NCBI GenBank assembly: GCA_036788815.1
Contig: DAIQMS010000004.1
Coordinates: 1 to 62,660, forward strand
Length of the DNA: 62,660 nt
From: Bacillota bacterium
GTDB taxonomy: Bacteria; Bacillota_I; Bacilli_A; RFN20; CAG-826
Direction of reading: 5' to 3'
In this document: positions 6,726-45,541 of the stretch, piece after piece
Layout: each line of letters begins with the position of its first letter
How positions within the stretch are numbered: the stretch's first letter is position 1
The notes under the pieces: generated by a model
The model's input: the letters and a program-made list of their open reading frames with translations, nothing else
The model's database searches: none
What the model was told of the DNA's origin: nothing
Program-made: the position numbers and the translations under genes

Positions 6726-6754
6726 AAGGTTCCTTCGGGAACCTTTTTTATTTT
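6726..6754 (+). terminator. Intrinsic terminator after greA
   Basis: AAGGTTCC-TTCG-GGAACCTT followed by TTTTATTTT. Confidence 0.85.
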
Positions 6755-6755
6755 C

Positions 6756-6791
6756 TGGGGCACGAATGGCTTTTTCTTGCCTATGGATATG
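6756..6791 (+). promoter_or_regulatory. Conserved upstream motif, copy 1 (TGGGGCAC-N8-TTTTCTTG-N-CTATNGATATG), upstream of comEA
   Basis: Ungapped match to 35785-35820. Confidence 0.7.
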
Positions 6792-6804
6792 TGGAGGGAT
6801 CAGC

Positions 6805-7347
6805 ATGTTCAAAACCATCATTGCCATCATCATCACGACCGTCGTCGTCCTCATCATCATGGCCGTCGTCGACAAGACGACCGCCCAAATCGTGGATTCC
6901 ACGCCCACGAGCACAAGCCAAAGCGCGTCCGACAGCCTTCAGGTCACGATCACCGGCGAGGTCAATCACACCGGGACCTACCTCTTGGCCCTCAAATCGA
7001 CCCTCAAGGATCTCCTCGATGCCGCCGGGGGCGCCACCTCGAATGCCGATCCGAAGGCTTATGACACGAGCTTTCTTTTGGAGAACAAGGAAACTTTTTA
7101 CATCGCGCCGATCTATGATAACGGGAACACCTGCGCGGTCACGCCGATCAGCAAGGTCTGCATCAATACCGCCGATAAAACGGCCTTATTGGGCGTCAAT
7201 GCTTTCTCGACGACCATCGCGAGCGCGATCGTGAGCTACCGGGAAACGAATGGAGCCTTCAAGCGGATCGAGGATCTCAAGAACGTCTCCGGCATCGGCA
7301 ACGCCACCTTCGAGAAATGCAAAAACTACGTCAGCTTGACGGAATAG
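6805..7347 (+). CDS. comEA: Competence DNA receptor ComEA
   Basis: N-terminal TM anchor, SLBB-like VTITGEVNHTGTY and C-terminal HhH (INTAD...AIVSYRETNGAFKRIEDLKNVSGIG). SD GGAGG. Confidence 0.92.
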   Translation: MFKTIIAIIITTVVVLIIMAVVDKTTAQIVDSTPTSTSQSASDSLQVTITGEVNHTGTYLLALKSTLKDLLDAAGGATSNADPKAYDTSFLLENKETFYIAPIYDNGNTCAVTPISKVCINTADKTALLGVNAFSTTIASAIVSYRETNGAFKRIEDLKNVSGIGNATFEKCKNYVSLTE

Positions 7348-9401
7348 GCCTCGTTAGTTTCTTTTTCGCCCTCGTCAGCTTCGTTCTCGGGGCTTATTTG
7401 GCCTTCGATTTCCATTCGCCTTCGTGCGTCTTGATCTTCTTAAGCATCATCCCCTTTCTTTACGCCGCCTTTAAGCGGGGGAAGGGGAACGTCGTCGTCT
7501 TTCTCCTTTCTTTGGGGCTCGGGATTGGGCTCTTCAGCATCAAGATCCCGCCTCAGGAAGGGAAAGGGACCTACGAGGGCTTCGTCTTGGAGGCCCGGGC
7601 CAATTACTTTTTCTTCGTGAGCAAGGGAGTCCGTTATTACGTCGTCGAGAAAGAAAGCACCCGCGAAAAGGGTGATGTCCTCTCGATCGAAGGGAAAGCG
7701 GCGCCTTATGAAGGAACCGAGTACGAAAGCCGGTTCTCCTTCAAGGAATATCTCGCCAAAAACGGGATCAGCGATCAGCTGAGCGCCTACAAGATCACCG
7801 TGAAATTCCAGCTCCCTCTCCGGCTCCGGGCCAAGGAAGTGAGCTTTCTTTCCCATTTCTCTAAGGAAGGGGCGGACGCGATCGACGCCCTCCTTTTTAA
7901 CCATAAGGATTATTCCTCGAGCTTCATTCAGAAGGCCTCATCCTTGGGCTGCCTTTATTTCCTCTCGTTGTCGGGGCTCCTCTATGGGGGAGTTCTCCGA
8001 GGGAGTGAGAAGCTTCTTTCGCTGAAGCTCAAGGACAAACAAACCCACGCGATTTGTTGGGTTTTGGCTCTTTTGCTTTTGCCCTTTGGCCTAGGAAAAG
8101 CTGGCTTCTGGCGGGTCTTTCTCTCGAGGAGCTATCATCTCTACGCCGAAAGGAAAGGCCTGCGTTCGCCCCCTCATTTTTACGTCCTATCGATCCTCGG
8201 GATCGTGAGTCTTTTGCTCAATCGCTATTACGCCCTCGATAGCGGCTTTCTTTTGGGCTATGGCCTCTCCTTTGCCCTTTGCCTAACGAGGGGCGTCCTT
8301 TCCCGTTACCCGGGCAAAAAGAAGAGTCTCATGAGCTCCCTTTTCGTCCTCTTTTTCCTATTCCCGATGCTGGCGAATAAAGGGGCGCTCCATCTTCTCT
8401 CGCTTCTCTACTCGTTCCTTTTGATGCCTCTTGTCTATCCTTTCGCCTTCTTTTCTAGCCTTTCGTTTCTCACGCTTCCTTGGGTCAAATTCCTCAATGC
8501 TTATGCCCATGTAATTGTCGGTGTGGTCGATGTTTTCGAGAAGGTGGACCTCCTTATCCCCTTGGGGAATTGGAGCGGGCCCTTCACGATCGGTTACTAC
8601 TTTTTCTTCGGGGCGTTTTACTATTTCCGGGAGTTCAACGCCCGCTTGATCGAACGGCTCTTGCTCGGAGCCCTAAGCGGAGTGATCGGCCTCGGGGTTT
8701 TGCCCATCAGCAATGCGGTGAGTGGGGAAGTCTCCTTCATCAACGTCGGGCAAGGGGACGCGATTTTGATTCGGGATCGCTTCACCACGGTTTTGATCGA
8801 TACCGGAGGCTCGCTCTCCTTTGATTTGGCGGAAGAAGTCGACATCCCTTATTTAAGGAAGAATAGGATCTATAAAATCGATTATCTGATTGCGAGCCAT
8901 GGCGACTATGACCATATCGGAGCGGCCGCTTCCTTAAGCCAGCATTTTCATGTGAGCCATTACGTGACGGATAAAAATTCCTTCCCTTTAAAAGCGGGCG
9001 ATCTCACCTTCGTGAATTACAACCTTTGGGGCGGGGCGGAAGAGAACGAGGAGAGTCTCGTCCTGGGTCTTGATTTCCTCGGCAAGGAATGGCTTTTCAC
9101 GGGGGATGCTCCGATTTCGATCGAGAAGAAAATCCTTCAGGAATTCCCGGCGATCAATTGCGATATTCTCAAAGTGGGGCACCATGGCTCAAAGACTTCC
9201 TCGTCCTACGATTTTCTCAAGACTATCACCCCCGAAGTGGCGATCATCTCGGTCGGGAGGAAAAACAAATACGGCCACCCGAATGAGGAGGTGATTGAAC
9301 GGCTCACTTCGCTCGGGATTCCCATCCGGCGGACCGACGAGGAAGGGACGATCACCTACGAAACCTATTTCGGGGCGAAATTAGGGCGCGTTTCATCGTG
9401 A
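7317..9401 (+). CDS. comEC: Competence DNA-uptake channel ComEC/Rec2
   Basis: Multi-TM region followed by an MBL domain (INVGQGDA, IDTGG, SHGDYDHIG, FTGDA, KVGHHGS, GHP); follows comEA. Start codon uncertain. Confidence 0.9.
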   Translation: MQKLRQLDGIGLVSFFFALVSFVLGAYLAFDFHSPSCVLIFLSIIPFLYAAFKRGKGNVVVFLLSLGLGIGLFSIKIPPQEGKGTYEGFVLEARANYFFFVSKGVRYYVVEKESTREKGDVLSIEGKAAPYEGTEYESRFSFKEYLAKNGISDQLSAYKITVKFQLPLRLRAKEVSFLSHFSKEGADAIDALLFNHKDYSSSFIQKASSLGCLYFLSLSGLLYGGVLRGSEKLLSLKLKDKQTHAICWVLALLLLPFGLGKAGFWRVFLSRSYHLYAERKGLRSPPHFYVLSILGIVSLLLNRYYALDSGFLLGYGLSFALCLTRGVLSRYPGKKKSLMSSLFVLFFLFPMLANKGALHLLSLLYSFLLMPLVYPFAFFSSLSFLTLPWVKFLNAYAHVIVGVVDVFEKVDLLIPLGNWSGPFTIGYYFFFGAFYYFREFNARLIERLLLGALSGVIGLGVLPISNAVSGEVSFINVGQGDAILIRDRFTTVLIDTGGSLSFDLAEEVDIPYLRKNRIYKIDYLIASHGDYDHIGAAASLSQHFHVSHYVTDKNSFPLKAGDLTFVNYNLWGGAEENEESLVLGLDFLGKEWLFTGDAPISIEKKILQEFPAINCDILKVGHHGSKTSSSYDFLKTITPEVAIISVGRKNKYGHPNEEVIERLTSLGIPIRRTDEEGTITYETYFGAKLGRVSS

Positions 9402-20066: not shown

Positions 20067-21746
20067 ATGAGCGAAAAAGAATGGGCCGTGGCTTACACGG
20101 ACGAGCAATACCTTTTACGAAGCGAAGTGGTCAAGGCGATGAACACCACCTTGATCGATGGCTATTGGGCCGACATTTTGGCCTATCGGAAGAGCAAGTC
20201 GATCACCCTTCCTTTCAAGACCATCACCAACCGCTTTTTCACTTTGACGTTATCGGAAGCCATCAAGGCGAAGATCACCGCGTTCGAACTCGTGAGCGCC
20301 CGCTTTGCCGGCGTCCTTAAAAAACTGAGCGATCCGCGGGAGAAAGAACAGGCCGAACGGGCTTGCCTTCTTTTGTCTCTCCGCGAGGTGTCCCTCAACG
20401 AAAACGCCCAGATGAGCGAGCTTTCTTTGAAGGCCTTGCTCAATGGGACCTATCAGGAAAACAATCCCTTCCACGCCCCGGTCGTCGCCTACCGGGATGC
20501 GCTTCATTTCTATCTCCATAATCCTTCGACGGCCCCTTTACGGCCCAATGAGGATTTCCTGGCCGAAGCGCTCGGGAAGTGCCTCGGGGTCGAAGAACTC
20601 ACGAGCTTTTATAGGACCGGCGATTTCGATGGCACGGCCCAACGTGCCCGCCATCTTTATAATCCAGACTTCAATTACGCCCCGTTCGATTTCATCGAGA
20701 CCCTGATGGGGGACTTCCTCCATTGGCTCAGCCATGGGGACGAGGTTTCCTATTTCGTGAAAGCCGTCGCCGCCTCCTATTATCTCGATTACGTGATGCC
20801 GTTTGAGGAACGGAATGACGAAGTGGCCACCCTTTTGGCCAAGACCGTCTTCCAGACTTCCGAAGCCGGACGGGAAGCGTTCCTTTTCCCCTTCGAAGCG
20901 TTGCTCCTCAAGACCGCCCGTTACAAGCTCTTGGCCCTCGAGACCCAGCGGAGCGGCGATCTCACTTACCTCGTGATGGAAGCGATCGACGTTTTGACGC
21001 CGCTACTCGAGAATCTGAGCGATGCGATCAAAGCCATCAAGATTGATACCTACCGCCGTGAATTCACCGCCGTCTCGCCTGAGGAGAAATCCGCAGCTGA
21101 ATCTACCCAAAAATCGGCCCCGGCCCAACAGCTTTCCCTCTTTGGTAATGCCGAAGAAAAACCGGTGGCGAAACCCGTCGAAGCGCCGAAAGCGGTGGCT
21201 CCGACTCCGGTAGCCGTCCCCGAGCCCGCTCCCGCACCCACTCCGGTCGCTGTCGCTCCAACCCCCGTTATTTCCGAAGAAAAGCCGATTCCTGCTCCCG
21301 TGGTTGAGCCGGCGAAGCCGGTAGAAGAAACGCCGGTCGTCCCGGAGCCCACTCCCGTAGAGCCCGCGCCGGTCACCAAAGAAGAGAAGCCGCGCGTCGC
21401 CCCGGAAAAAGTGATTACCCTTGAGGAGATGGCGCCGAAGGAAAACGAAGGCGAAAGCGCCCTCCAAGTCGAGAGCAATCCCTTGAGCGGGAAGGAAATC
21501 AAGGAATACACCCAGTATCTTCTTGAGACCAACCCCGCCCTCAACAAAAACCAAGCCTCTTTCTTGGCCAATCACTGCACGATGGGCCGTTATTACACGA
21601 TCCAGCAGTTCAAGAAATTCACCCGCTGCGCCTACGAAACCGCACGAACTTCTATGGATAAGCTCGCTCAGGAGCGCTATTATACCAAATTGCAGGTGAA
21701 GAATAAGTTCGTCTACACCCCGATCAAAAAAGGAGAAGCAAAATGA
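20067..21746 (+). CDS. Fic-like protein with degenerate active site, Pro/Glu-rich linker and probable C-terminal winged-HTH
   Basis: YYLDYVMPFEERNDEVA in place of HPFxDGNGR; PVAVPEPAPAP repeats; C-terminal YTIQQFKKFTRCAYETARTSMDKL. Confidence 0.65.
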   Translation: MSEKEWAVAYTDEQYLLRSEVVKAMNTTLIDGYWADILAYRKSKSITLPFKTITNRFFTLTLSEAIKAKITAFELVSARFAGVLKKLSDPREKEQAERACLLLSLREVSLNENAQMSELSLKALLNGTYQENNPFHAPVVAYRDALHFYLHNPSTAPLRPNEDFLAEALGKCLGVEELTSFYRTGDFDGTAQRARHLYNPDFNYAPFDFIETLMGDFLHWLSHGDEVSYFVKAVAASYYLDYVMPFEERNDEVATLLAKTVFQTSEAGREAFLFPFEALLLKTARYKLLALETQRSGDLTYLVMEAIDVLTPLLENLSDAIKAIKIDTYRREFTAVSPEEKSAAESTQKSAPAQQLSLFGNAEEKPVAKPVEAPKAVAPTPVAVPEPAPAPTPVAVAPTPVISEEKPIPAPVVEPAKPVEETPVVPEPTPVEPAPVTKEEKPRVAPEKVITLEEMAPKENEGESALQVESNPLSGKEIKEYTQYLLETNPALNKNQASFLANHCTMGRYYTIQQFKKFTRCAYETARTSMDKLAQERYYTKLQVKNKFVYTPIKKGEAK

Positions 21747-29589: not shown

Positions 29590-30327
29590 ATGCAGCGCTA
29601 TTTTGGACGAGTGGGAAATGGCGAGGCTTTTTTAAGTGAGGGCGACGTCCATCATCTTTTGGACGTGATGCGCTCCAAAGTCGGCGAAGCGATTGAAATC
29701 GTCGATGAAGGCGAGCTTTATGATGCGGTCGTTTCTTCGACGAATCCGCTTAAAATCACAATCAAAGGCCTAAAGAAACGGGAGACGGAACTCCAAGCGA
29801 AGTTGCTCTTATCCTTTTCCCTCCTCAAACACGGGAACGATGATTTGGTTTTCGAGAAGGGGACCGAGCTCGGCGTGAGCGATTTCTATCCTTTCATCTC
29901 TTCGCGCACCATCATCCGGGTGGATTCCGAGGAAGATAAAGCAAAAAAACTCCTCCGTGAAGAAAAGATCGTGAAAGGGGCCGCCGAGCAATCGAAGCGC
30001 GAACGGGTTCCCTCGGTGCATCCCTTGCTGGATTATTCGGCGTTATTGGACGTTTCCGCCGATCTTAAACTTTTTGCCTACGAGAACGAGAGCGACGATG
30101 TCGCCTCGCTTCCCGAAGCCTTCAAGGCTCTCCCCGAAAAAGGGAGCTGCCTCATCGTGATCGGCCCCGAAGGGGGCTTTTCGCCCGAGGAAGCCCAAGA
30201 AGCGAAAGCAAAAGGCTTCCGTTTTGTCTCGCTCGGGAAGCGGATTCTTCGGGCCGAGACGGCTGCCCTTTATGCCGCGAGCGTCTTTTCCTACGCCACC
30301 GAAAGCGAAGGAGGGCAAAGAAAATGA
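29590..30327 (+). CDS. rsmE: 16S rRNA m3U1498 methyltransferase
   Basis: KGTELGVS, GAAEQSKR, IGPEGGFS, LGKRILRAETA. Confidence 0.95.
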   Translation: MQRYFGRVGNGEAFLSEGDVHHLLDVMRSKVGEAIEIVDEGELYDAVVSSTNPLKITIKGLKKRETELQAKLLLSFSLLKHGNDDLVFEKGTELGVSDFYPFISSRTIIRVDSEEDKAKKLLREEKIVKGAAEQSKRERVPSVHPLLDYSALLDVSADLKLFAYENESDDVASLPEAFKALPEKGSCLIVIGPEGGFSPEEAQEAKAKGFRFVSLGKRILRAETAALYAASVFSYATESEGGQRK

Positions 30328-31124
30328 CCCTCTACGAAGAACTCGAATCCCACCAACGGACCACGCCCTTTTCGACCTCCAGCGAGGCCACGTTCTATAA
30401 CGAGAACGCCTTTCTCCTCTCCGGGGTAGAGCAATGGGCGATGTTCTTAAAGCCGCTCGACCCGTTTCTCACGATCCGGGCGAACATCCTGATCCGGGGT
30501 CTCCTCAATAAGGAACGGATCGAAAAACTCTATCTTGCCAAAACCAAGGAGGCCGATTTTCCGAAAGAGGAACGGCTTTCCCTCAAAGAATACATGGCTT
30601 CGGGCATGAGTAATCTTCCCTATCTGCTTTATGAAGGAGAGAAGATCTACGTCCCGTTTTTCCCGACTTCGCTCAACGCGCTTTATGCGAAGGATTGGGC
30701 GAAATTAGCCCAATCGCCCTATGAAAGACTGGTCCGCGAATACCAGGCGGCGACAGTTGATTGCTTCGATTATTATGGCTATGCCCTCTTTGATTCCTAC
30801 TTCACCAAATTGGTGCCGATTCGGAAGAGCCCGAAGGTCATGGCGGCTTACGATTACGACGCTGAAGCCCTCTATTTCATCAACGACGAAGGCCGGCTCG
30901 ACGCCAAGATCTGCCTCTTTGACCGCGAGATCAAATCCCCGGTCAAAACCCACATGGTCAAGCGGATCGAGAAAGTGGCCGATGCGTATTTCGAGAACGA
31001 TCGGAATGCGCTGATTCGCTCCCTCGTCGAAGGCAATCTCATCTCCTCGAGCCTGATGCACGAATTGGCAGGCAAGGAAATCAAAGTGCAGGAACGACGC
31101 GAGAAAACGGGGGAGAAAGAATGA
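30324..31124 (+). CDS. Hypothetical protein
   Basis: 266-aa ORF coupled by ATGA overlaps to rsmE and mtaB, with SD GGAGG; no family recognised. Confidence 0.75.
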   Translation: MTLYEELESHQRTTPFSTSSEATFYNENAFLLSGVEQWAMFLKPLDPFLTIRANILIRGLLNKERIEKLYLAKTKEADFPKEERLSLKEYMASGMSNLPYLLYEGEKIYVPFFPTSLNALYAKDWAKLAQSPYERLVREYQAATVDCFDYYGYALFDSYFTKLVPIRKSPKVMAAYDYDAEALYFINDEGRLDAKICLFDREIKSPVKTHMVKRIEKVADAYFENDRNALIRSLVEGNLISSSLMHELAGKEIKVQERREKTGEKE

Positions 31125-34496: not shown

Positions 34497-35443
34497 AAAG
34501 CTTTCGAAGCGTCATCGCTGAAGAAGGACCCCTCCGCAACGAGGGGTTTTTTCATGGTTTTGAGGAGCTTCCAATCTTTCTTGAGCTCCGCGAAATAAGC
34601 AGGAGCTGCCCCGGCTTTTTTATCCAAGCGTTTATCGAAGGAAAGCGACATCGCCATCCGAGGGAGTTTGGCTTGGAAAGCCTTGAGGCCTTCTTCGTTG
34701 GCCGTCTTCTCGAGGAAATAGCGTTCGAGGGCGAAAACGACGAGGTGGCGGAAGGCCCGATTGGTCCGTTTCACCGTCATGGCACTATTGGCGTTGGTCT
34801 TATCATAGTAATAAAGAGGTTTCCGCAACGAGACGACTTTGGAGCAATAGGAGAGCAAGGCGCAATTGAGAGCCACGTCTTCGAATTGCATATCTAGTGG
34901 CGCCCCCAAAACGAGGAGCGGCCGTTTCTTCGTGAGTTCGGTTTTATAAAGTTTGGTCCAGCAAAAGCCGCGGATAAAAGAATCATCGAAATAGGCTTTA
35001 AGGATATTTTTCTTCGATAAGGTGGCGTTTTTTGAGAAGGGATAGTAGTGGGCTTTCGCCTTTTTGCCGCTCACGTAATAAAAAGAGCAGTTCACGCAAT
35101 CAGCGTTACTCTCGCGGGCGGTTTTTAGAAGCGTCTCCAAGGCCTCAGGCGCCAAGACGTCATCTGCGTCCATGAAGTAAAAATAGGGCGAGGTGGCCTT
35201 CTCAATCCCCCTGATCCTCGAAAGGCCGATGCCCATCCGTTTCTCGGGCGCGTCGATGACAAGGCTCGGAAAACGTTTCTGAAAGCTCTCAGCGATTGCT
35301 AAGGAATCATCTTTCGATGGATCAATCTCCAAGATGACTTCGATCGGCTCTTTCAGGGTTTGCTTCTCCAAAAGCGAGCTCAAAGAGCGCGCTAAATAGG
35401 CGCTGGAATTGTAGACCGGCATGATCACGCTGAGGCTTGCCAT
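34487..35443 (-). CDS. GT2 glycosyltransferase
   Basis: SVIMPVYNS, FMDADD, WTKLYK, FED. Start placed at the ATG at 35443. Confidence 0.88.
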   Translation of the reverse strand: MASLSVIMPVYNSSAYLARSLSSLLEKQTLKEPIEVILEIDPSKDDSLAIAESFQKRFPSLVIDAPEKRMGIGLSRIRGIEKATSPYFYFMDADDVLAPEALETLLKTARESNADCVNCSFYYVSGKKAKAHYYPFSKNATLSKKNILKAYFDDSFIRGFCWTKLYKTELTKKRPLLVLGAPLDMQFEDVALNCALLSYCSKVVSLRKPLYYYDKTNANSAMTVKRTNRAFRHLVVFALERYFLEKTANEEGLKAFQAKLPRMAMSLSFDKRLDKKAGAAPAYFAELKKDWKLLKTMKKPLVAEGSFFSDDASKAFYF

Positions 35444-35560
35444 GCTGGGATTATAGCATCGCAAATGCGGAAAAAGCATCTTTCCTACGGAATCATCTTG
35501 CAAAAACTCTCTCGCGCGATAGAATTAACACGCTGAAAAGTGGGAAGAAGGTGAGTTCCA

Positions 35561-35737
35561 ATGGCTGTCAAAACTGTGCTTCATGAGGGCGAATCCCTTG
35601 ATGATGCGATGCGTCGGTTCAAACGTTCGGTCAATAAGAGCGGCGTCCTTCTCGAATCCCGCAAAAGAGAGTGCTACTACAAGACGAACTTGAAGCGGAA
35701 GATGAAATCCGAAGCTGCACGTCGTAAAAAGTGGTAA
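35561..35737 (+). CDS. rpsU: 30S ribosomal protein S21 (not in the ORF track)
   Basis: Read by hand: [58 protein letters not shown]. Confidence 0.95.
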
Positions 35738-35751
35738 AAATTTGATTCGAT

Positions 35752-35783
35752 AAATCCTGAGGAAACTCAGGATTTTTTATTTT
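35752..35783 (+). terminator. Intrinsic terminator after rpsU
   Basis: AAATCCTGAG-GAAA-CTCAGGATTT followed by TTTATTTT. Confidence 0.88.
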
Positions 35784-35784
35784 G

Positions 35785-35820
35785 TGGGGCACAAAACGAC
35801 TTTTCTTGTCTATAGATATG
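35785..35820 (+). promoter_or_regulatory. Conserved upstream motif, copy 2, upstream of the C39 peptidase gene
   Basis: TGGGGCAC-aaaacgac-TTTTCTTG-t-CTATAGATATG; matches 6756-6791. Confidence 0.7.
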
Positions 35821-35821
35821 T

Positions 35822-37018
35822 GTGGAAACAATTTATCAAGGCGACGAAGAAGGATGTGGGTTAGCCTCCCTCCGGATGCTCCTCATTCTCGTCTCTCACG
35901 AGGCGAATTACCGCTATCTGACCCTCGAGGGTCATCCTCCTTATTCTTTAGAGGAACTCACTCGAGCGGCGGCCAAAGAGGGGCTTGGACTCAAGTTCAA
36001 ACGGGTCCAAAGCAAAGAGGACCTTGTCCATAACACCTCTTGGCCGATTCTCCTCCTCTACGGGAAGGAAGAGGACTCCCATTGCCTCGTGGCCGTCAAA
36101 AAGCGGGGGAGCAAGATTCTCATCGATGACCCTTCCGAAGGGAAAAGGTGGGAGTCCATTCCCGCGATTGAACGCCGATGGAACGGGATCTATGGCGAAG
36201 TCGTCTCCTATTTCGCGACCCGCTGCCCCTATAAGAAAAAGCGGGTCCCTCTCCCGGCGGGAATCGTCTTGGCCTCCTTTTTCGAGATTCTCTCGGAAGC
36301 GGCGCTGTACTTTGGCTTTTATAACGTCCAAAAGGATGCCGATTATCTTTATTCGGTCATTTTCTTCGCCCTCTTTGGCCTCTTTTCGATCATCAAGCGC
36401 TCGTTCGCGGTCTGGGGGATGAAAGCCTTCGACAAAGGCCACCTCGAATCGATCTATGATCCCGATCCCCATCGCTTAAGGAGTAACTACGAGCATTATT
36501 ACCGTTATAAGGCTCTCCTTTTCGGGGGTTGGATCGAATTCCTTTCCGCCCTTTTCTTCAGTTCCGCCCTCTTGGCCCTCGTGGGCTTCAATAGCCCGTA
36601 TTTCCTGGCTTCGGCCGGCGGATTTCTGATCTACGCCCTCTTCGAGGCCCTTTATTGGCGGAAGAATCTTCAAAAGGAGAAAAGCGCCCTCGAAAACGAC
36701 GAGAAAACGCTTTTTCTGTCGAAAGAGAGCGCCGATGAGAAGAAACGGAGCATCCTTTCGCTCAGTCAGAAGGCGTACCGGCTCGGGGATTACGTCTCCT
36801 ATTCCCAGGCGGTCCGCTTCGTCCTTTCCTTGGCCCTGGCCCTGATTCCGATGCTGGCTTCTCAGGCGATTTCCCTAAACTATTTCCTCTTTCACTTTTT
36901 CGCTCTCCTTGCAATCGGGGATGGCTTCGAAAAAGTGGTCTCTTTCTTCATGAAAGGACGGGAGAGAAGCCAGGAATTTGACTATTTCCTGGAATATTTC
37001 CTCAAAGAGGGCGAATAG
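35822..37018 (+). CDS. C39 cysteine peptidase domain + multi-pass membrane domain, no ATPase domain
   Basis: YQGDEEGCGLASL (Q...C), SHCLV (H), IDDPSEG (D), followed by several hydrophobic segments. No Walker A/B or LSGGQ. GTG start without SD. Confidence 0.8.
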   Translation: METIYQGDEEGCGLASLRMLLILVSHEANYRYLTLEGHPPYSLEELTRAAAKEGLGLKFKRVQSKEDLVHNTSWPILLLYGKEEDSHCLVAVKKRGSKILIDDPSEGKRWESIPAIERRWNGIYGEVVSYFATRCPYKKKRVPLPAGIVLASFFEILSEAALYFGFYNVQKDADYLYSVIFFALFGLFSIIKRSFAVWGMKAFDKGHLESIYDPDPHRLRSNYEHYYRYKALLFGGWIEFLSALFFSSALLALVGFNSPYFLASAGGFLIYALFEALYWRKNLQKEKSALENDEKTLFLSKESADEKKRSILSLSQKAYRLGDYVSYSQAVRFVLSLALALIPMLASQAISLNYFLFHFFALLAIGDGFEKVVSFFMKGRERSQEFDYFLEYFLKEGE

Positions 37019-37059
37019 GGATAACAAAAGGAGGCACAATGTGCTAATCTACTTACGCG

Positions 37060-37518
37060 ATGGAAGTTTGCTTTACCTCCCCCTTCGGGGCGGACTACGA
37101 TTACCTGGAAAGCCGTTACCGCCAGCTGGCGGAAGTGGCATTCTCTTATTTAAAAATCACCACGAACTACGAAGTCGATGTGTCGCTCGTGGACGACGAT
37201 ACGATTCATACGATCAATCGCGACTACCGCCATGTTGACAAAGTGACGGATGTCATCTCCTTCGCCTTCAACGACGACAAGGACCCTCATGACCAAATCA
37301 ACGATCCCTCCTTCGAGCGGATGCTCGGCGAGATTCTCATTTGTTTGCCCCAAGCCCAGCGCCAGGCTAAGGCGATCGGAAATTCCGAACGACGCGAACT
37401 AAGCTTCTTATTTGTGCACGGGCTCTTGCATTTGCTGGGGTACGACCACATGAAAAAGGAAGATGAGGAGGTCATGTTCCCCCTTCAGGACATCATCCTG
37501 GAGAAAGCGGGAGCGTAA
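37060..37518 (+). CDS. ybeY: rRNA maturation endoribonuclease YbeY
   Basis: NRDYRHVDKVTDVISF, FVHGLLHLLGYDH. Confidence 0.96.
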   Translation: MEVCFTSPFGADYDYLESRYRQLAEVAFSYLKITTNYEVDVSLVDDDTIHTINRDYRHVDKVTDVISFAFNDDKDPHDQINDPSFERMLGEILICLPQAQRQAKAIGNSERRELSFLFVHGLLHLLGYDHMKKEDEEVMFPLQDIILEKAGA

Positions 37519-37525
37519 AAACAGT

Positions 37526-37924
37526 ATGGATGAAAGCCAGTTGATCGATTGCGCGAAAGAAGCCCGCGAGCTCTCTTATTCGCCTTATTCGCATTTTGCG
37601 GTCGGGGCAGCCCTTGTCTGCACCGATGGTTCCGTTTACGTTGGCGCCAATGTCGAAAATTCGTCCTATCCGCTCTCGATGTGCGCGGAGCGCAATGCCG
37701 TTTATAACGCGATGATGGATGGGAAAACCACCGATGATTTCGTCGCTTTGGCGATCATCGCGGATACCGATGGACCTTGCTCGCCCTGCGGCGCGTGCCG
37801 TCAGGTCTTAAGCGAGCTTTTCCCTTCGGATGCCCCGATTTATCTCACGAACCTCAAAGGCGATGTGAAAACGACGAACGTCAAGGAGCTTTTGCCCTTC
37901 GCCTTTACCGGTGACGATTTATGA
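37526..37924 (+). CDS. cdd: Cytidine deaminase (homotetrameric type)
   Basis: SYSPYSHFAVGAAL, GANVENSSY, CAER, PCGACRQ. Confidence 0.96.
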   Translation: MDESQLIDCAKEARELSYSPYSHFAVGAALVCTDGSVYVGANVENSSYPLSMCAERNAVYNAMMDGKTTDDFVALAIIADTDGPCSPCGACRQVLSELFPSDAPIYLTNLKGDVKTTNVKELLPFAFTGDDL

Positions 37925-38817
37925 AGAGCGGATTTTGCGCGATCGTAGGGCGCCCGAATGTCGGGAAGAGCACCTTGCTCAACGCCCTTCTTTCCAAGAA
38001 AGTCTCGATCGTCTCGCCTAAACCGCAGACGACCCGTGACCAGATCATCGGGATCTATAACGAAAAGGATCTCCAGATCGTTTTCATCGACACCCCGGGG
38101 CTTTTCGAAAGCGAAGAGGCCCTCGATAAGGCGATGAACAAAGCCGCCCGCGGCTCGCTCGCGGACATTGATTGCCTTCTCTATTTGATCGATGCCTCCG
38201 AAGAAACGTATGATGACGATGACAAAGTCTTATCGACGATCCATTCCGATAAGCCTTGGATCCTCACTTTCAACAAGATCGATTTGGCGGATGCCGCGAT
38301 GATGGAAAAGATCACCGCCCATTTCAAGACCCTTTATCCGAAGGCGGAGCAGCTTCAGCTTTCCGCCCTCACCAACTTCGGCCTCAAAGACGTGAAAGAT
38401 ACGGTGGCGAGCCATCTTAAGGAAGGCCCCCAATACTATCCGGAAGGCGAAGTGAGCGACAAAGACCATGCGTTCATGGCCAAAGAGATCGTCCGCCAAG
38501 AGTTACTGCATTTCCTCAAACAAGAAGTTCCTCATCAATCGGCTGTTTACATTTCTTCCTTCAAGGAAGACAAGGAGACGGCGAAGATCTCCGGCGTGAT
38601 CTATGTCGAAAAAGAAACCCAGAAGGGAATCGTGATCGGACACGGAGGCGAAATGATCAAGAAGATTTCCATGTCCGCCCGCCACGAATTGGAGCGGATG
38701 TGGCAAAAGCACGTGATTCTCGTTTTGGAAGTCGACTATTCCGCCAACTGGCGGAATGACGTCGCCAAACTCAAGAAACTCGGCTATGGAGCAAAGAATG
38801 ACGAGGACTCTGACTGA
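37921..38817 (+). CDS. era: GTPase Era
   Basis: GRPNVGKSTL, PQTTRD, DTPG, NKID, KH domain GIVIG. Confidence 0.97.
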   Translation: MKSGFCAIVGRPNVGKSTLLNALLSKKVSIVSPKPQTTRDQIIGIYNEKDLQIVFIDTPGLFESEEALDKAMNKAARGSLADIDCLLYLIDASEETYDDDDKVLSTIHSDKPWILTFNKIDLADAAMMEKITAHFKTLYPKAEQLQLSALTNFGLKDVKDTVASHLKEGPQYYPEGEVSDKDHAFMAKEIVRQELLHFLKQEVPHQSAVYISSFKEDKETAKISGVIYVEKETQKGIVIGHGGEMIKKISMSARHELERMWQKHVILVLEVDYSANWRNDVAKLKKLGYGAKNDEDSD

Positions 38818-39526
38818 CGTCGAAGGCTACGTAATCCATTTATCAGCCTACAAAGATAATGATTCGATGGTGACGGTCTATTCTTCGGAAGGATCGGTCT
38901 CATTTTTGGCGCGGGGAATCCAAAAGACAACCTCCAAAAACGCGGGATCCTGCCAGCTTTTGTCCTATTCCCGTTTTTCGCTTGAGGTCGGCAAGAGCGG
39001 CGGCTATTCCCTCAAGGAAGGGATTTCGCTGAAGCCGATTGACGGCCGCGATAATCTCGAACGCCTGACCGCCTTCTCCTTTCTGGCGGAAATCAGTTCC
39101 AAGCTCATCCAGGAAGACGAGGTCAAGGAAGCCTATCCTTGGCTCAAAGGCAGTTTGGATGCCCTCGAAGGAAATGCCGATCCTTTCAGCGTTTCGCTGA
39201 TTTATTTCGCGCATTTGCTTGTGATCGGCGGATATGGCCTCGATGTCGATGAGTGCATCTATTGCCAGTCGAAGAGCAATATCAAAGGCGTCTCTTATAG
39301 CGATGGCGGCTTTGTTTGCGCGAACGAGATGGATGAAGGGGCGACCCCTTTGGACGCCCGGCATCTGAAGATCCTGCGCTACATTTTCCGCTGCGGCGTC
39401 GCCGATATCCGACGGGTGGCGTTCGCCAAAGAGGAATGCCAGGGATTCTTCCAGAGTCTATCGCAATATTTGGCCGATTTGACCGGGGTCGAACTCAAAA
39501 GCATCGATCTCCTCTTAAAGGCTTGA
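38798..39526 (+). CDS. recO: DNA repair protein RecO
   Basis: Position after era; YKDNDSMVTVY..EG, LARG, CIYC Zn site. Confidence 0.88.
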   Translation: MTRTLTDVEGYVIHLSAYKDNDSMVTVYSSEGSVSFLARGIQKTTSKNAGSCQLLSYSRFSLEVGKSGGYSLKEGISLKPIDGRDNLERLTAFSFLAEISSKLIQEDEVKEAYPWLKGSLDALEGNADPFSVSLIYFAHLLVIGGYGLDVDECIYCQSKSNIKGVSYSDGGFVCANEMDEGATPLDARHLKILRYIFRCGVADIRRVAFAKEECQGFFQSLSQYLADLTGVELKSIDLLLKA

Positions 39527-42904: not shown

Positions 42905-42929
42905 GCGCTTAATGAGAAGGAACAGAGTT

Positions 42930-44524
<1,595 letters not shown>

Positions 44525-44525
<1 letters not shown>

Positions 44526-45541
44526 TGAAGAAAAAAGCAACAGGGCTCGAAGCGGCCGAGGCCTTCTTCCTTGAGCAAGCTCAGGGAAAAGGCTCGATCG
44601 ATCAGAACTTTTTGCTCGATGAAGCCGATGACTTTCTTTTAAGCGAGGAGGAATTCGAGAAACTCAGCGATTTCCTTTCGGCCCACAAGATCGCCATCCG
44701 CGACGACGAACTGATTCCAAACGAGAAGCCGCTTCAGGTTTCTTCGAGCGATCCGTTCCGTCTTTATCTTTCGCAAATGGGCCAATTCCCGCTTCTCTCC
44801 AAGGATCAGGAAATCGAGCTCGCCAAGAAAATCGCTCAAGGGGACCTCGAAGCAAAGAACGCTTTGATCAATAGCAACCTCCGGCTCGTCGTTTCGATTG
44901 CCAAGCATTATGCCAATAGCGGCGTTCCGATCCAGGACTTGATCCAGGAGGGGAACATCGGTTTGGCTCATGCGGCCGAAAAGTTTGACTACACCAAAGG
45001 TTTTAAGTTTTCGACTTACGCGACGTGGTGGATCAAGCAAGCCATCACCCGGGCGATCGCCGATCAATCCCGCAACATCCGGATTCCGGTCCATGTCGCC
45101 GAGACTTTGACCAAGATCAACCGCTCCCGCCACGAATTGGCGCAGAGTTTGGGCCGGGAAGCCACCGACGAAGAAGTGGCGGCCGCGCTCAAGATGCCGA
45201 TCGAAGACGTCCGTTATTATGCTTCTTTGCCGCTCAGCACGACCTCTTTAGACGCCCCGGTCGGGGATGACGAAGGGGACGAGATGAGTAATTTCGTCGC
45301 CGATCCGAGCGAGAACGATACCGATACGATCGACGTCGAGGACGATTTGGGGCTGATCTCCAAAGGAATGTCTTCTCTCAATGAGCGGGAGCGGAACATC
45401 ATCGTTCAGCTTTTTGGCCTCACCGACGGGGAGAGCAAATCCCTCGAAGAGGTCGGGGCCCAATACGGGCTCTCGCGCGAAAGAATCCGCCAAATCCGCG
45501 ATGGCGCCTTAGCGAAAATGCGGAAGGAACTCAAAAAATGA
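44525..45541 (+). CDS. Second RpoD-like (group 1/2) sigma-70 factor
   Basis: [79 protein letters not shown]; TGATG overlap with rpoD. Confidence 0.93.

Follow-up and report, generated by a model that had tools for sequence, protein, structure and literature searches.

A C39 peptidase joined to an exporter-type membrane domain without an ATPase in uncultured Bacilli: conserved gene order and a promoter-like box in common with comEA/comEC

What can a C39 peptidase do when it is joined to an exporter-type membrane domain that has no ATPase, and why would a gene for such a protein be placed in a run of housekeeping genes? This question was raised by a 398 amino acid (aa) open reading frame (ORF) on contig DAIQMS010000004.1 of the Bacillota bacterium assembly GCA_036788815.1, of which we analyzed positions 1 to 62,660 (the window). 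We refer to it as the C39-TM gene, TM standing for transmembrane. C39 domains are best known from peptidase-containing ATP-binding cassette (ABC) transporters (PCATs), the textbook route in Gram-positive bacteria for maturing and exporting pheromones and bacteriocins, whose cycle is thought to need ATP-driven release of the peptidase. The lineage encoding the C39-TM protein consists of little-known uncultured Bacilli from rumen and other metagenomes.

On balance we lean towards the answer that this protein is an ATPase-less derivative of a PCAT, which cleaves and perhaps also passes on cargo with a double-glycine leader, possibly within a DNA uptake regulon. It would be a PCAT descendant that lost its ATPase and is now a core gene of a Bacilli lineage known only from metagenome-assembled genomes. 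An ATPase-less family of C39 membrane proteins is without description in the literature that we searched. A natural family combining peptidase and exporter domain without the ATPase would offer a direct test of what both can do alone and, if the reading is true, would represent the second natural case, after SbmA/BacA, of an ABC exporter fold working without a nucleotide-binding domain (NBD).

The N-terminal part of the protein matched Pfam Peptidase_C39 (PF03412) at residues 3-123 (E 1.1e-11, 45.2 bits at a cutoff of 22), and the same domain was matched by 68 of 68 family members. The catalytic set Q6 and C12 (in YQGDEEGCG), H87 (in SHCLV) and D103 (in DDP) was present, as a preliminary description of this DNA had noticed. 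In an alignment of 177 members with a median identity to the query of 24%, conservation was 89% for Q6, 97% for C12 (the rest being gaps), 99% for H87 and 100% for D103, which speaks against the inactive peptidase that had been considered at the outset. Comparison of the family profile with known C39 domains gave E 1e-14 for pneumococcal ComA and E 4e-18 for LahT150 (6mpz). NCBIfam yielded matches below threshold only, led by the Mycoplasma Mbov_0121 PCAT family (E 6e-5). The C39-like domains (CLDs) of HlyB-type type 1 secretion exporters have no catalytic cysteine and do not cleave. These domains, found in our structure search as 7sgr and 8dck, also have the C39 fold at the exporter N-terminus; unlike them, the C39-TM family has C12 in every member with a residue at that position. 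LahT150 (6MPZ; PMC6363468), the best sequence match to the peptidase domain and with the same catalytic residues, is a domain excised from a full transporter, whereas the peptidase described here is naturally joined to a membrane domain alone. Judging from these sequence features, the C39 domain is in all likelihood an active peptidase, and its most likely function is the removal of leaders of the double-glycine type. It would act as a papain-like cysteine endopeptidase with Q6 in the oxyanion hole and C12, H87 and D103 as catalytic residues.

Behind the peptidase we found six hydrophobic segments, in agreement with the several TM segments noted before. Lysine and arginine residues numbered 6 in the first intracellular loop (ICL1), 9 in ICL2 and 4 in the C-terminal tail, in addition to the KKKR of the linker, and 1, 0 and 0 in the three outer loops of 3-6 residues each. 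By this positive-inside pattern both termini and the peptidase are predicted to be cytoplasmic. An AlphaFold2 (AF2) model built from 23 sequences (mean predicted local distance difference test score 84, predicted template modelling score 0.69) had six long helices behind a peptidase domain of the alpha/beta type. When this model was compared to the Protein Data Bank (PDB) with Foldseek, PCAT1 structures were the top matches (6v9z, 8vp5, 9azl, 7t55 and 4ry2; E 3e-12 to 4e-10), with query TM-scores of 0.65-0.72 over about 440-460 alignment columns covering both domains. Inward-facing PCAT1 (6v9z, 8vp5, 4ry2) was among the best matches to the model, and ATP-bound outward-facing PCAT1 (7t54) was a poorer fit with a TM-score of 0.54. 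Lower matches were the membrane domains of MsbA, TmrAB, TAP, BmrCD and McjD, and ATPase-less SbmA (9g3d) was matched with E 8e-4 and a query TM-score of 0.41.

The profile alignments led to the same relatives. A 23-sequence profile aligned to PCAT1 in two collinear stretches (residues 4-122 to 16-137 and 240-314 to 291-364) and a 68-sequence profile in one (4-315 to 15-363, E 4.8e-17), with collinearity extending through TM4 and ICL2. The membrane part is thus related to ABC membrane domains, a point the preliminary description had put up for checking, by its Foldseek matches to PCAT1, MsbA, TmrAB and TAP as well as by the PCAT1 profile alignment. Near-invariant residues of the membrane domain were D204 (in an FD motif), K230 and E294, each conserved in 96-99% of the 177 members, and N257 (89%). 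The outer-turn motifs at N257 and N353 were kept across very divergent members, and loop lengths were nearly invariant with 35 aa for ICL1 and 49 aa for ICL2. We regard PCAT ancestry of the membrane domain as very probable. By analogy with the type IV exporter fold, the protein would be a homodimer in which the peptidase is kept at the point where the translocation cavity opens to the cytoplasm.

PCAT1 of Clostridium (Acetivibrio) thermocellum (4RY2, 6V9Z, 7T54-57, 8VP3-9) likewise carries an N-terminal C39 domain with the Q/C/H/D residues on a six-helix type IV exporter domain, at a sequence identity of 13-14%. Unlike PCAT1, the C39-TM protein has no NBD, terminates with a tail about 20 aa long, and shows short, variable ICL tips in place of the coupling helices. 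Its gene also departs from the PCAT habit in having no cargo gene alongside and in lying within a conserved housekeeping cluster. As both the ATPase and the adjacent cargo are missing, we do not file the protein as a PCAT.

The missing ATPase was seen at every level that we inspected. About 21 residues remain after TM6, and 41 nucleotides (nt) separate the stop codon from ybeY, which leaves no room for an ATPase remnant. Across the family the tail after TM6 had 16-43 aa (median 21) in 177 of 177 aligned members. Pfam ABC_tran had no match in the 398 aa protein, no ORF in the window had both a Walker A and an ABC signature motif, and no ABC genes were present in any orthologous neighborhood inspected, all of which agrees with the earlier remark that the protein lacks Walker motifs and that no ABC ATPase gene is adjacent. 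In ABC exporters the ATPase is gripped by coupling helices, which are formed by the tips of the intracellular loops. The corresponding tips were 4-residue turns in the AF2 model (212-215 and 300-303) and the least conserved segments of the protein, with 0.85 and 0.91 bits versus 1.3-1.9 bits in the remainder of the TM helices with their cytoplasmic extensions. The model suggests that the ATPase docking site is probably absent, and a dedicated ATPase partner is likely not to exist.

The preliminary description had left the choice between a split unit and a unit not driven by ATP. Since the ICL tips are short turns and so little conserved, we favor the latter. A split ABC exporter, in which the protein would be the peptidase-plus-membrane half and the ATPase a separate polypeptide encoded elsewhere, is improbable: besides the loop tips, the lack of an ABC ATPase gene in the window and in the orthologous neighborhoods and the short tail that ends the protein in all 177 members speak against it, and in nearly all known type IV exporters the NBDs are fused. 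It draws some support from the 96-99% conservation of D204, K230 and E294, which lie in cytoplasmic helix extensions, and from the fact that the inspected portion of this genome was 62.7 kb.

Could the protein simply be what is left of a broken transporter? A word-indexed search returned 38 homologs with 34-99% identity and 306-424 aa. Every one belongs to an assembly of an uncultured 'Bacilli bacterium', and 'C39 domain-containing protein' is the most specific name that any of them has; the few short ones sit on contigs whose length is about 1-2 kb or at most 16 kb. In a profile search, exhaustive over 1.84 billion representatives, the number of clusters (50% identity) was at least 255 with E<1e-30 and 1055 with E<1e-3; lengths in the best 150 of the at least 255 ranged from 306 to 422 aa. 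Full-length PCAT orthologs, which would make this copy a recent truncation, were looked for and not found among the 38 homologs and the best 150 representatives, all of 306-424 aa. Constant length and conserved catalytic residues rule out a recent truncation and a dead peptidase, and length conservation together with synteny likewise rules out a pseudogene. A decaying remnant of a PCAT without function would be in line with the absence of an ATPase and of an adjacent substrate gene. It is refuted by conservation and extremely improbable, given the number of divergent clusters, the same length in the best 150 of them, catalytic residues conserved at 89-100% despite a median identity of 24%, and a synteny that is fixed in at least 13 genomes. 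Searches of the defense-system and phage libraries PADLOC and PHROGs gave no match. This large, uncharacterized family is a fixed part of the core genome in uncultured Bacilli.

The gene order mtaB-deoC-(glycosyltransferases)-rpsU-C39-TM-ybeY-(cdd)-era-recO-glyQS was found in at least 13 GTDB reference genomes, these being all in which a relative was found, and in four metagenome loci. The order rpsU-C39-TM-ybeY holds even for members that are 25-28% identical. Identity among orthologs of the C39-TM gene was 25-36%, versus 44-98% (mostly 65-90%) for rpsU, ybeY and glyQS. The placement between rpsU and ybeY that had been reported for the window, with ybeY-cdd-era-recO following, is therefore a property of the lineage, and synteny holds in the relatives as length does. 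In Bacillus subtilis the interval between rpsU and ybeY is occupied by yqeY...phoH-pgpH. The window as a whole is a housekeeping run including alaS, greA, comEA, comEC, holA, fmt, lepA, hrcA, rsmE, rpsU, ybeY, cdd, era, recO, glyQS, dnaG, rpoD and parE/parC-like genes, among others. Ordinary bacteriocin loci are accessory and have their cargo gene alongside. From the order conserved across genomes we conclude that the C39-TM gene, unlike such an accessory locus, is inherited vertically and belongs, as a single copy, to the core genes of the lineage.

A second line of evidence on its role came from the DNA directly upstream. The 47 nt between a terminator-like hairpin after rpsU and the GTG start codon closely match the sequence before comEA, the common element being TTTTATTTTnTGGGGCAC-N7-yTTTTCTTGyCTATrGATATGTG at 6746-6797 and 35775-35826. 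Within the window the 23-mer CTTTTCTTGNCTATNGATATGTG (at most one mismatch) occurred only at 6771-6793 and 35800-35822, with 0.00 occurrences expected by chance. A position-weight matrix gave about 75 bits for either site and 1.5 for the best of the remaining window sites, and the degenerate core GGYAC-N17-CTANNNNT was found at the same two window sites only. The 'comE-type box' of the preliminary description is thus real. Its consensus is bipartite, GGyAC-N17-CTAnnnnT, and comEA-comEC, whose second product has homologs named ComEC, is the sole other transcription unit of the window that carries it. The comEA copy sits after the greA terminator hairpin. Before the C39-TM gene the box ends right at the start codon and is preceded by the rpsU hairpin, which, going by the sequence, is what separates rpsU from the C39-TM gene; a matching hairpin and T-run were present at the same position in every orthologous locus inspected. 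The box appears to be the dedicated promoter of the C39-TM gene.

The box was followed into related genomes. An ortholog from a species with 69% identity (locus L003) has the same box. In a second species, represented by a 685-kb contig, the boxes of comEA and of the C39-TM gene were 85% alike versus 74-76% between orthologous boxes, and the two have species-specific changes in common. This closer likeness within the species suggests co-evolution with a common factor. A third, distant species has the bipartite anchor alone in common (GTAC-N17-CTCTACT...). In five orthologs (window 35810-35824; L003, L022, L024 and L001) the distance from the 'CTA' to the GTG or ATG with which the C39-TM gene starts is exactly 12 nt, and no Shine-Dalgarno sequence is present. 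The comEA gene has a GGAGGG ribosome-binding site at the position where the C39-TM gene has its start codon. The fixed spacing of 12 nt suggests that the C39-TM protein is translated from a leaderless or near-leaderless mRNA, which would be transcribed from the GGyAC-N17-CTAnnnnT element. In the distant orthologs L008-L019 a TATA-like motif begins about 11-22 nt before the start codon. A sigma-54 promoter was considered, as GGCAC resembles the -24 element, and rejected since TTGC lies 13 nt away rather than 4-5 and is absent in the copy before the C39-TM gene. Rfam gave chance-level matches only for positions 35300-37300.

Two further observations concern the comEA side of this comparison and the possible reader of the box. 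As mechanically listed, the comEA ORF opens at ATG 6766, within the box; the true start is probably the ATG at 6805 behind the GGAGGG, which opens an N-terminal membrane anchor (MFKTIIAIIITT...). Downstream of dnaG the window encodes two full-length genes of the sigma-70 type in tandem (42912-44525 and 44522-45541, both on the + strand, overlapping by 4 nt). The first product is a 537 aa RpoD-like protein; the second, of 339 aa, is a paralog with regions 1.2, 2, 3 and 4 that stayed below every NCBIfam cutoff and was best matched by RpoD/RpoS-like families. This second sigma factor is a candidate for reading the GGyAC-N17-CTAnnnnT box.

Because the same element precedes comEA-comEC, co-expression of the C39-TM gene with the DNA uptake machinery is probable. 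Taken together, the fixed housekeeping position and this box suggest that the role is a core physiological one and may lie in DNA uptake. The competence link proposed in the preliminary description has circumstantial support from the box, clear in two genomes and weak in a third; a pheromone gene was not found in the window or beside orthologs. We treat a link of the C39-TM protein to competence as tentative, at somewhat below even chances. In streptococci ComA has an ATPase, works with ComB, is encoded beside or near the pheromone system and belongs to the early competence genes, and the DNA uptake genes are late competence genes. ComA of Streptococcus pneumoniae and S. mutans (8HF4, 3K8U, 5XE8) resembles our protein in its homologous C39 domain and in the possible competence connection through the comEA/comEC box. 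Unlike ComA, the C39-TM protein has neither ATPase nor partner nor pheromone gene, and its box is common with DNA uptake genes.

The gene order also invites a quite different explanation, in which the protein is an accessory of ribosome or RNA maturation that processes a ribosomal or ribosome assembly protein, as the Prp protease does in trimming L27. The order rpsU-C39-TM-ybeY-era was strict in every genome seen, and co-transcription with ybeY and era is probable. Against this stand the much faster divergence of the C39-TM gene compared to its neighbors (25-36% versus 44-98%), a promoter of its own that is insulated by a terminator and common with comEA rather than with ribosomal genes, a membrane-embedded exporter fold without obvious use in ribosome assembly, and neighboring proteins without a double-glycine leader. 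We consider such a role very improbable.

Returning to the ATPase-less PCAT derivative, its substrate would be encoded elsewhere in the genome, and its leader would be bound and cut by the cytoplasmic peptidase. In every genome the neighbors of the C39-TM gene were rpsU, ybeY, cdd, era, recO and glycosyltransferases, and none of the proteins of neighboring genes has a double-glycine leader. An internal LKDLLDAAGG of ComEA was rejected as a cleavage site because the C39 peptidase is cytoplasmic, whereas this motif, which comes after the N-terminal membrane anchor and close to or inside the SLBB match (residues 60-95 of the listed ORF), belongs to a part of ComEA presumed to be extracellular. 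Pilins are normally cut after a single glycine by A24 prepilin peptidases, and nothing was found in support of the earlier idea of a pilin maturase.

How cleaved cargo would leave the cell is the remaining part of the question, and SbmA/BacA is a precedent. These proteins (SLiPT; 9G3D; PMC8442886, PMC13316013) also have an exporter-like membrane domain without ATPase and without coupling helices and handle peptides. SLiPTs lack the coupling helices that an orphan NBD would need, SbmA has a conserved 'glutamate ladder' for protons, and LmrA stripped of its NBD can run on a proton gradient (PMC8442886). Unlike the C39-TM protein, SbmA imports peptides, contains 8 TM helices and lacks a peptidase domain, and the C39-TM family in turn has no conserved acidic ladder in the membrane. 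The SbmA_BacA profile had no Pfam match in the C39-TM protein or the 68 members, and sequence similarity to SbmA was not detectable. In analogy to SbmA and to NBD-less LmrA, cargo would cross the membrane without ATP hydrolysis by the protein itself, driven by the proton-motive force or by facilitation; alternatively, the cleaved cargo would be released for another route. Translocation through the membrane domain is a possibility to which we give nearly even chances. The most far-reaching version, in which this would be the first ATP-free peptidase-exporter, a secondary-active or facilitative protein that cleaves and exports its cargo and is expressed from a comEA/comEC promoter on a leaderless mRNA as a lineage-wide part of the DNA uptake program, is in our view unlikely. 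In this version the cargo might be, for instance, a signal or a lysis factor by which donor DNA becomes accessible.

Several observations weigh against the reading of the protein as an ATPase-less PCAT derivative with a possible place in DNA uptake. Concerning its fold, the AF2 model is a monomer, with dimerization being assumed, and 0 of 68 members matched Pfam ABC_membrane (PF00664) even at E<=1. The membrane domain is therefore highly diverged, and its homology rests on the fold and on a weak collinear profile alignment. The near-invariant residues D204, K230 and E294 sit in the cytoplasmic helix extensions, and D204 and E294 presumably resemble consensus motifs of ABC_membrane that are kept in other ABC exporters, so that a partner might dock at this site. 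Concerning the substrate, a scan of the 62.7-kb window for ORFs with a double-glycine leader returned only shadow ORFs inside other genes, consistent with the earlier statement that no such ORF is adjacent, and no cargo genes were found beside orthologs in the neighborhoods inspected. Concerning the DNA uptake link, the box of the third genome has a weak similarity of 47% (ungapped), and essential ybeY and era lie directly downstream of the C39-TM gene with no obvious promoter of their own. As the whole ybeY-cdd-era-recO run lacks a recognizable promoter, strict competence specificity of the box would require that these genes be served by read-through from rpsU or by promoters not seen here. 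A metagenome-wide scan found the box at three loci, none of which is a known competence gene, so that no regulon was defined. One was an ortholog of the C39-TM gene. Another (L006, 12355-12805) precedes a 133 aa ORF with a good ribosome-binding site and no Pfam match, adjoining a probable DNA methyltransferase gene that was identified by reading the sequence. The third (L007, 169-200, - strand) follows the lysS terminator and has no clear downstream gene in the DNA there. The pattern used in the scan was probably too strict, because copies of the box elsewhere differ at several positions.

Concerning the energy source, which belongs to the same list, no strongly conserved protonatable residue was found within the membrane; E275 (about 51% D/E), D367 (about 53% D/E) and H358 (about 46%) came closest. 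Proton coupling is therefore without direct support from sequence. This bears on another explanation, according to which the protein is a membrane-anchored processing protease whose exporter domain serves as anchor or platform for substrate recognition, with the product leaving otherwise or staying in the cell. Besides the lack of conserved proton-relay residues, it is favored by the better conservation of the peptidase domain (mean pairwise identity 31% versus 21% for the membrane domain) and by the existence of stand-alone C39 peptidases such as FapD, for which there was a weak NCBIfam match (E 0.03). The six-helix architecture, the ICL lengths and the outer-turn motifs have been maintained, which is more than a simple anchor needs, and we hold this explanation to be rather unlikely.

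The features of the locus are given in Table 1. A longer N-terminus of the 398 aa ORF is excluded by an in-frame TAG at 35813-35815, just 5' of the GTG. Some orthologs (P0006, P0022 and P0027) have been called publicly with extended N-termini and 415-424 aa. Of these, P0006 (L003/L005) was inspected at the DNA level and rejected as an over-extension, its added codons crossing both the promoter box and the terminator hairpin of rpsU. At this locus a GTG/ATG that yields about 398 aa is the conserved start. The C-terminal tail of close relatives has a YFLEYF.K motif.

Table 1. Coordinates of the C39-TM gene, its predicted domains and associated features in the window
Feature	Position	Strand	Details
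C39 peptidase + 6-TM protein, coding sequence	35822..37018	+	GTG start, TAG stop, 398 aa
C39 domain, residues 1-130, predicted cytoplasmic	35822..36211	+	Pfam and family profile matches
Catalytic codons	Q6 35837-35839; C12 35855-35857; H87 36080-36082; D103 36128-36130	+	
Basic linker, residues 131-145	36212..36256	+	...CPYKKKRVPLP, between peptidase and TM1
Six-helix membrane domain, residues 146-377, predicted PCAT-type ABC exporter fold	36257..36952	+	AF2, Foldseek, profile alignments
Short tail, residues 378-398, predicted cytoplasmic	36953..37015	+	Helix 379-392; occupies position of PCAT ATPase
'comE-type box' before C39-TM gene	35775..35821	+	T-run, GGCAC 35788-35792, 17 nt, CTATAGAT 35810-35817
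Twin box before comEA	6746..6798	+	GGCAC 6759-6763, CTATGGAT 6781-6788, ribosome-binding site GGAGGG 6793-6798
comEA and overlapping comEC	6805..9401	+	comEA probable start ATG 6805, ends 7347; comEC 7317-9401; Pfam SLBB + HHH_3, Lactamase_B
rpsU	35561-35737		Flanks C39-TM gene upstream
Terminator-like hairpin and T-run after rpsU	35752..35775	+	10 bp stem, GAAA loop
ybeY, cdd, era, recO	37060..39526	+	Downstream of C39-TM gene, short gaps

A scan found no terminator-like site between the C39-TM gene and ybeY-cdd-era-recO, and these four genes are probably co-transcribed with it. In the gap before ybeY we noticed a mini-ORF of two codons (ATG TGC TAA, 37039-37047) behind a strong Shine-Dalgarno sequence (AGGAGG, 37030-37035), and the ATG of ybeY at 37060 has no ribosome-binding site of its own nearby. 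Shine-Dalgarno sequence and mini-ORF may together be a translational coupling device for ybeY.

Elsewhere in the window, two ORFs on the + strand, 20067-21746 (559 aa) and 30324-31124 (266 aa), had no Pfam or NCBIfam match. The latter occupies the slot between rsmE and mtaB, which in loci L001 and L003 holds an ORF of 257-265 aa with no Pfam match on record. At the beginning of the window, a 409 aa protein of the metallo-beta-lactamase fold (27-1256, + strand) is followed by a 427 aa protein (1329-2612, + strand) with a C-terminal barnase-type ribonuclease domain. The two may be a nuclease pair, located a few kb upstream of comEA/comEC.

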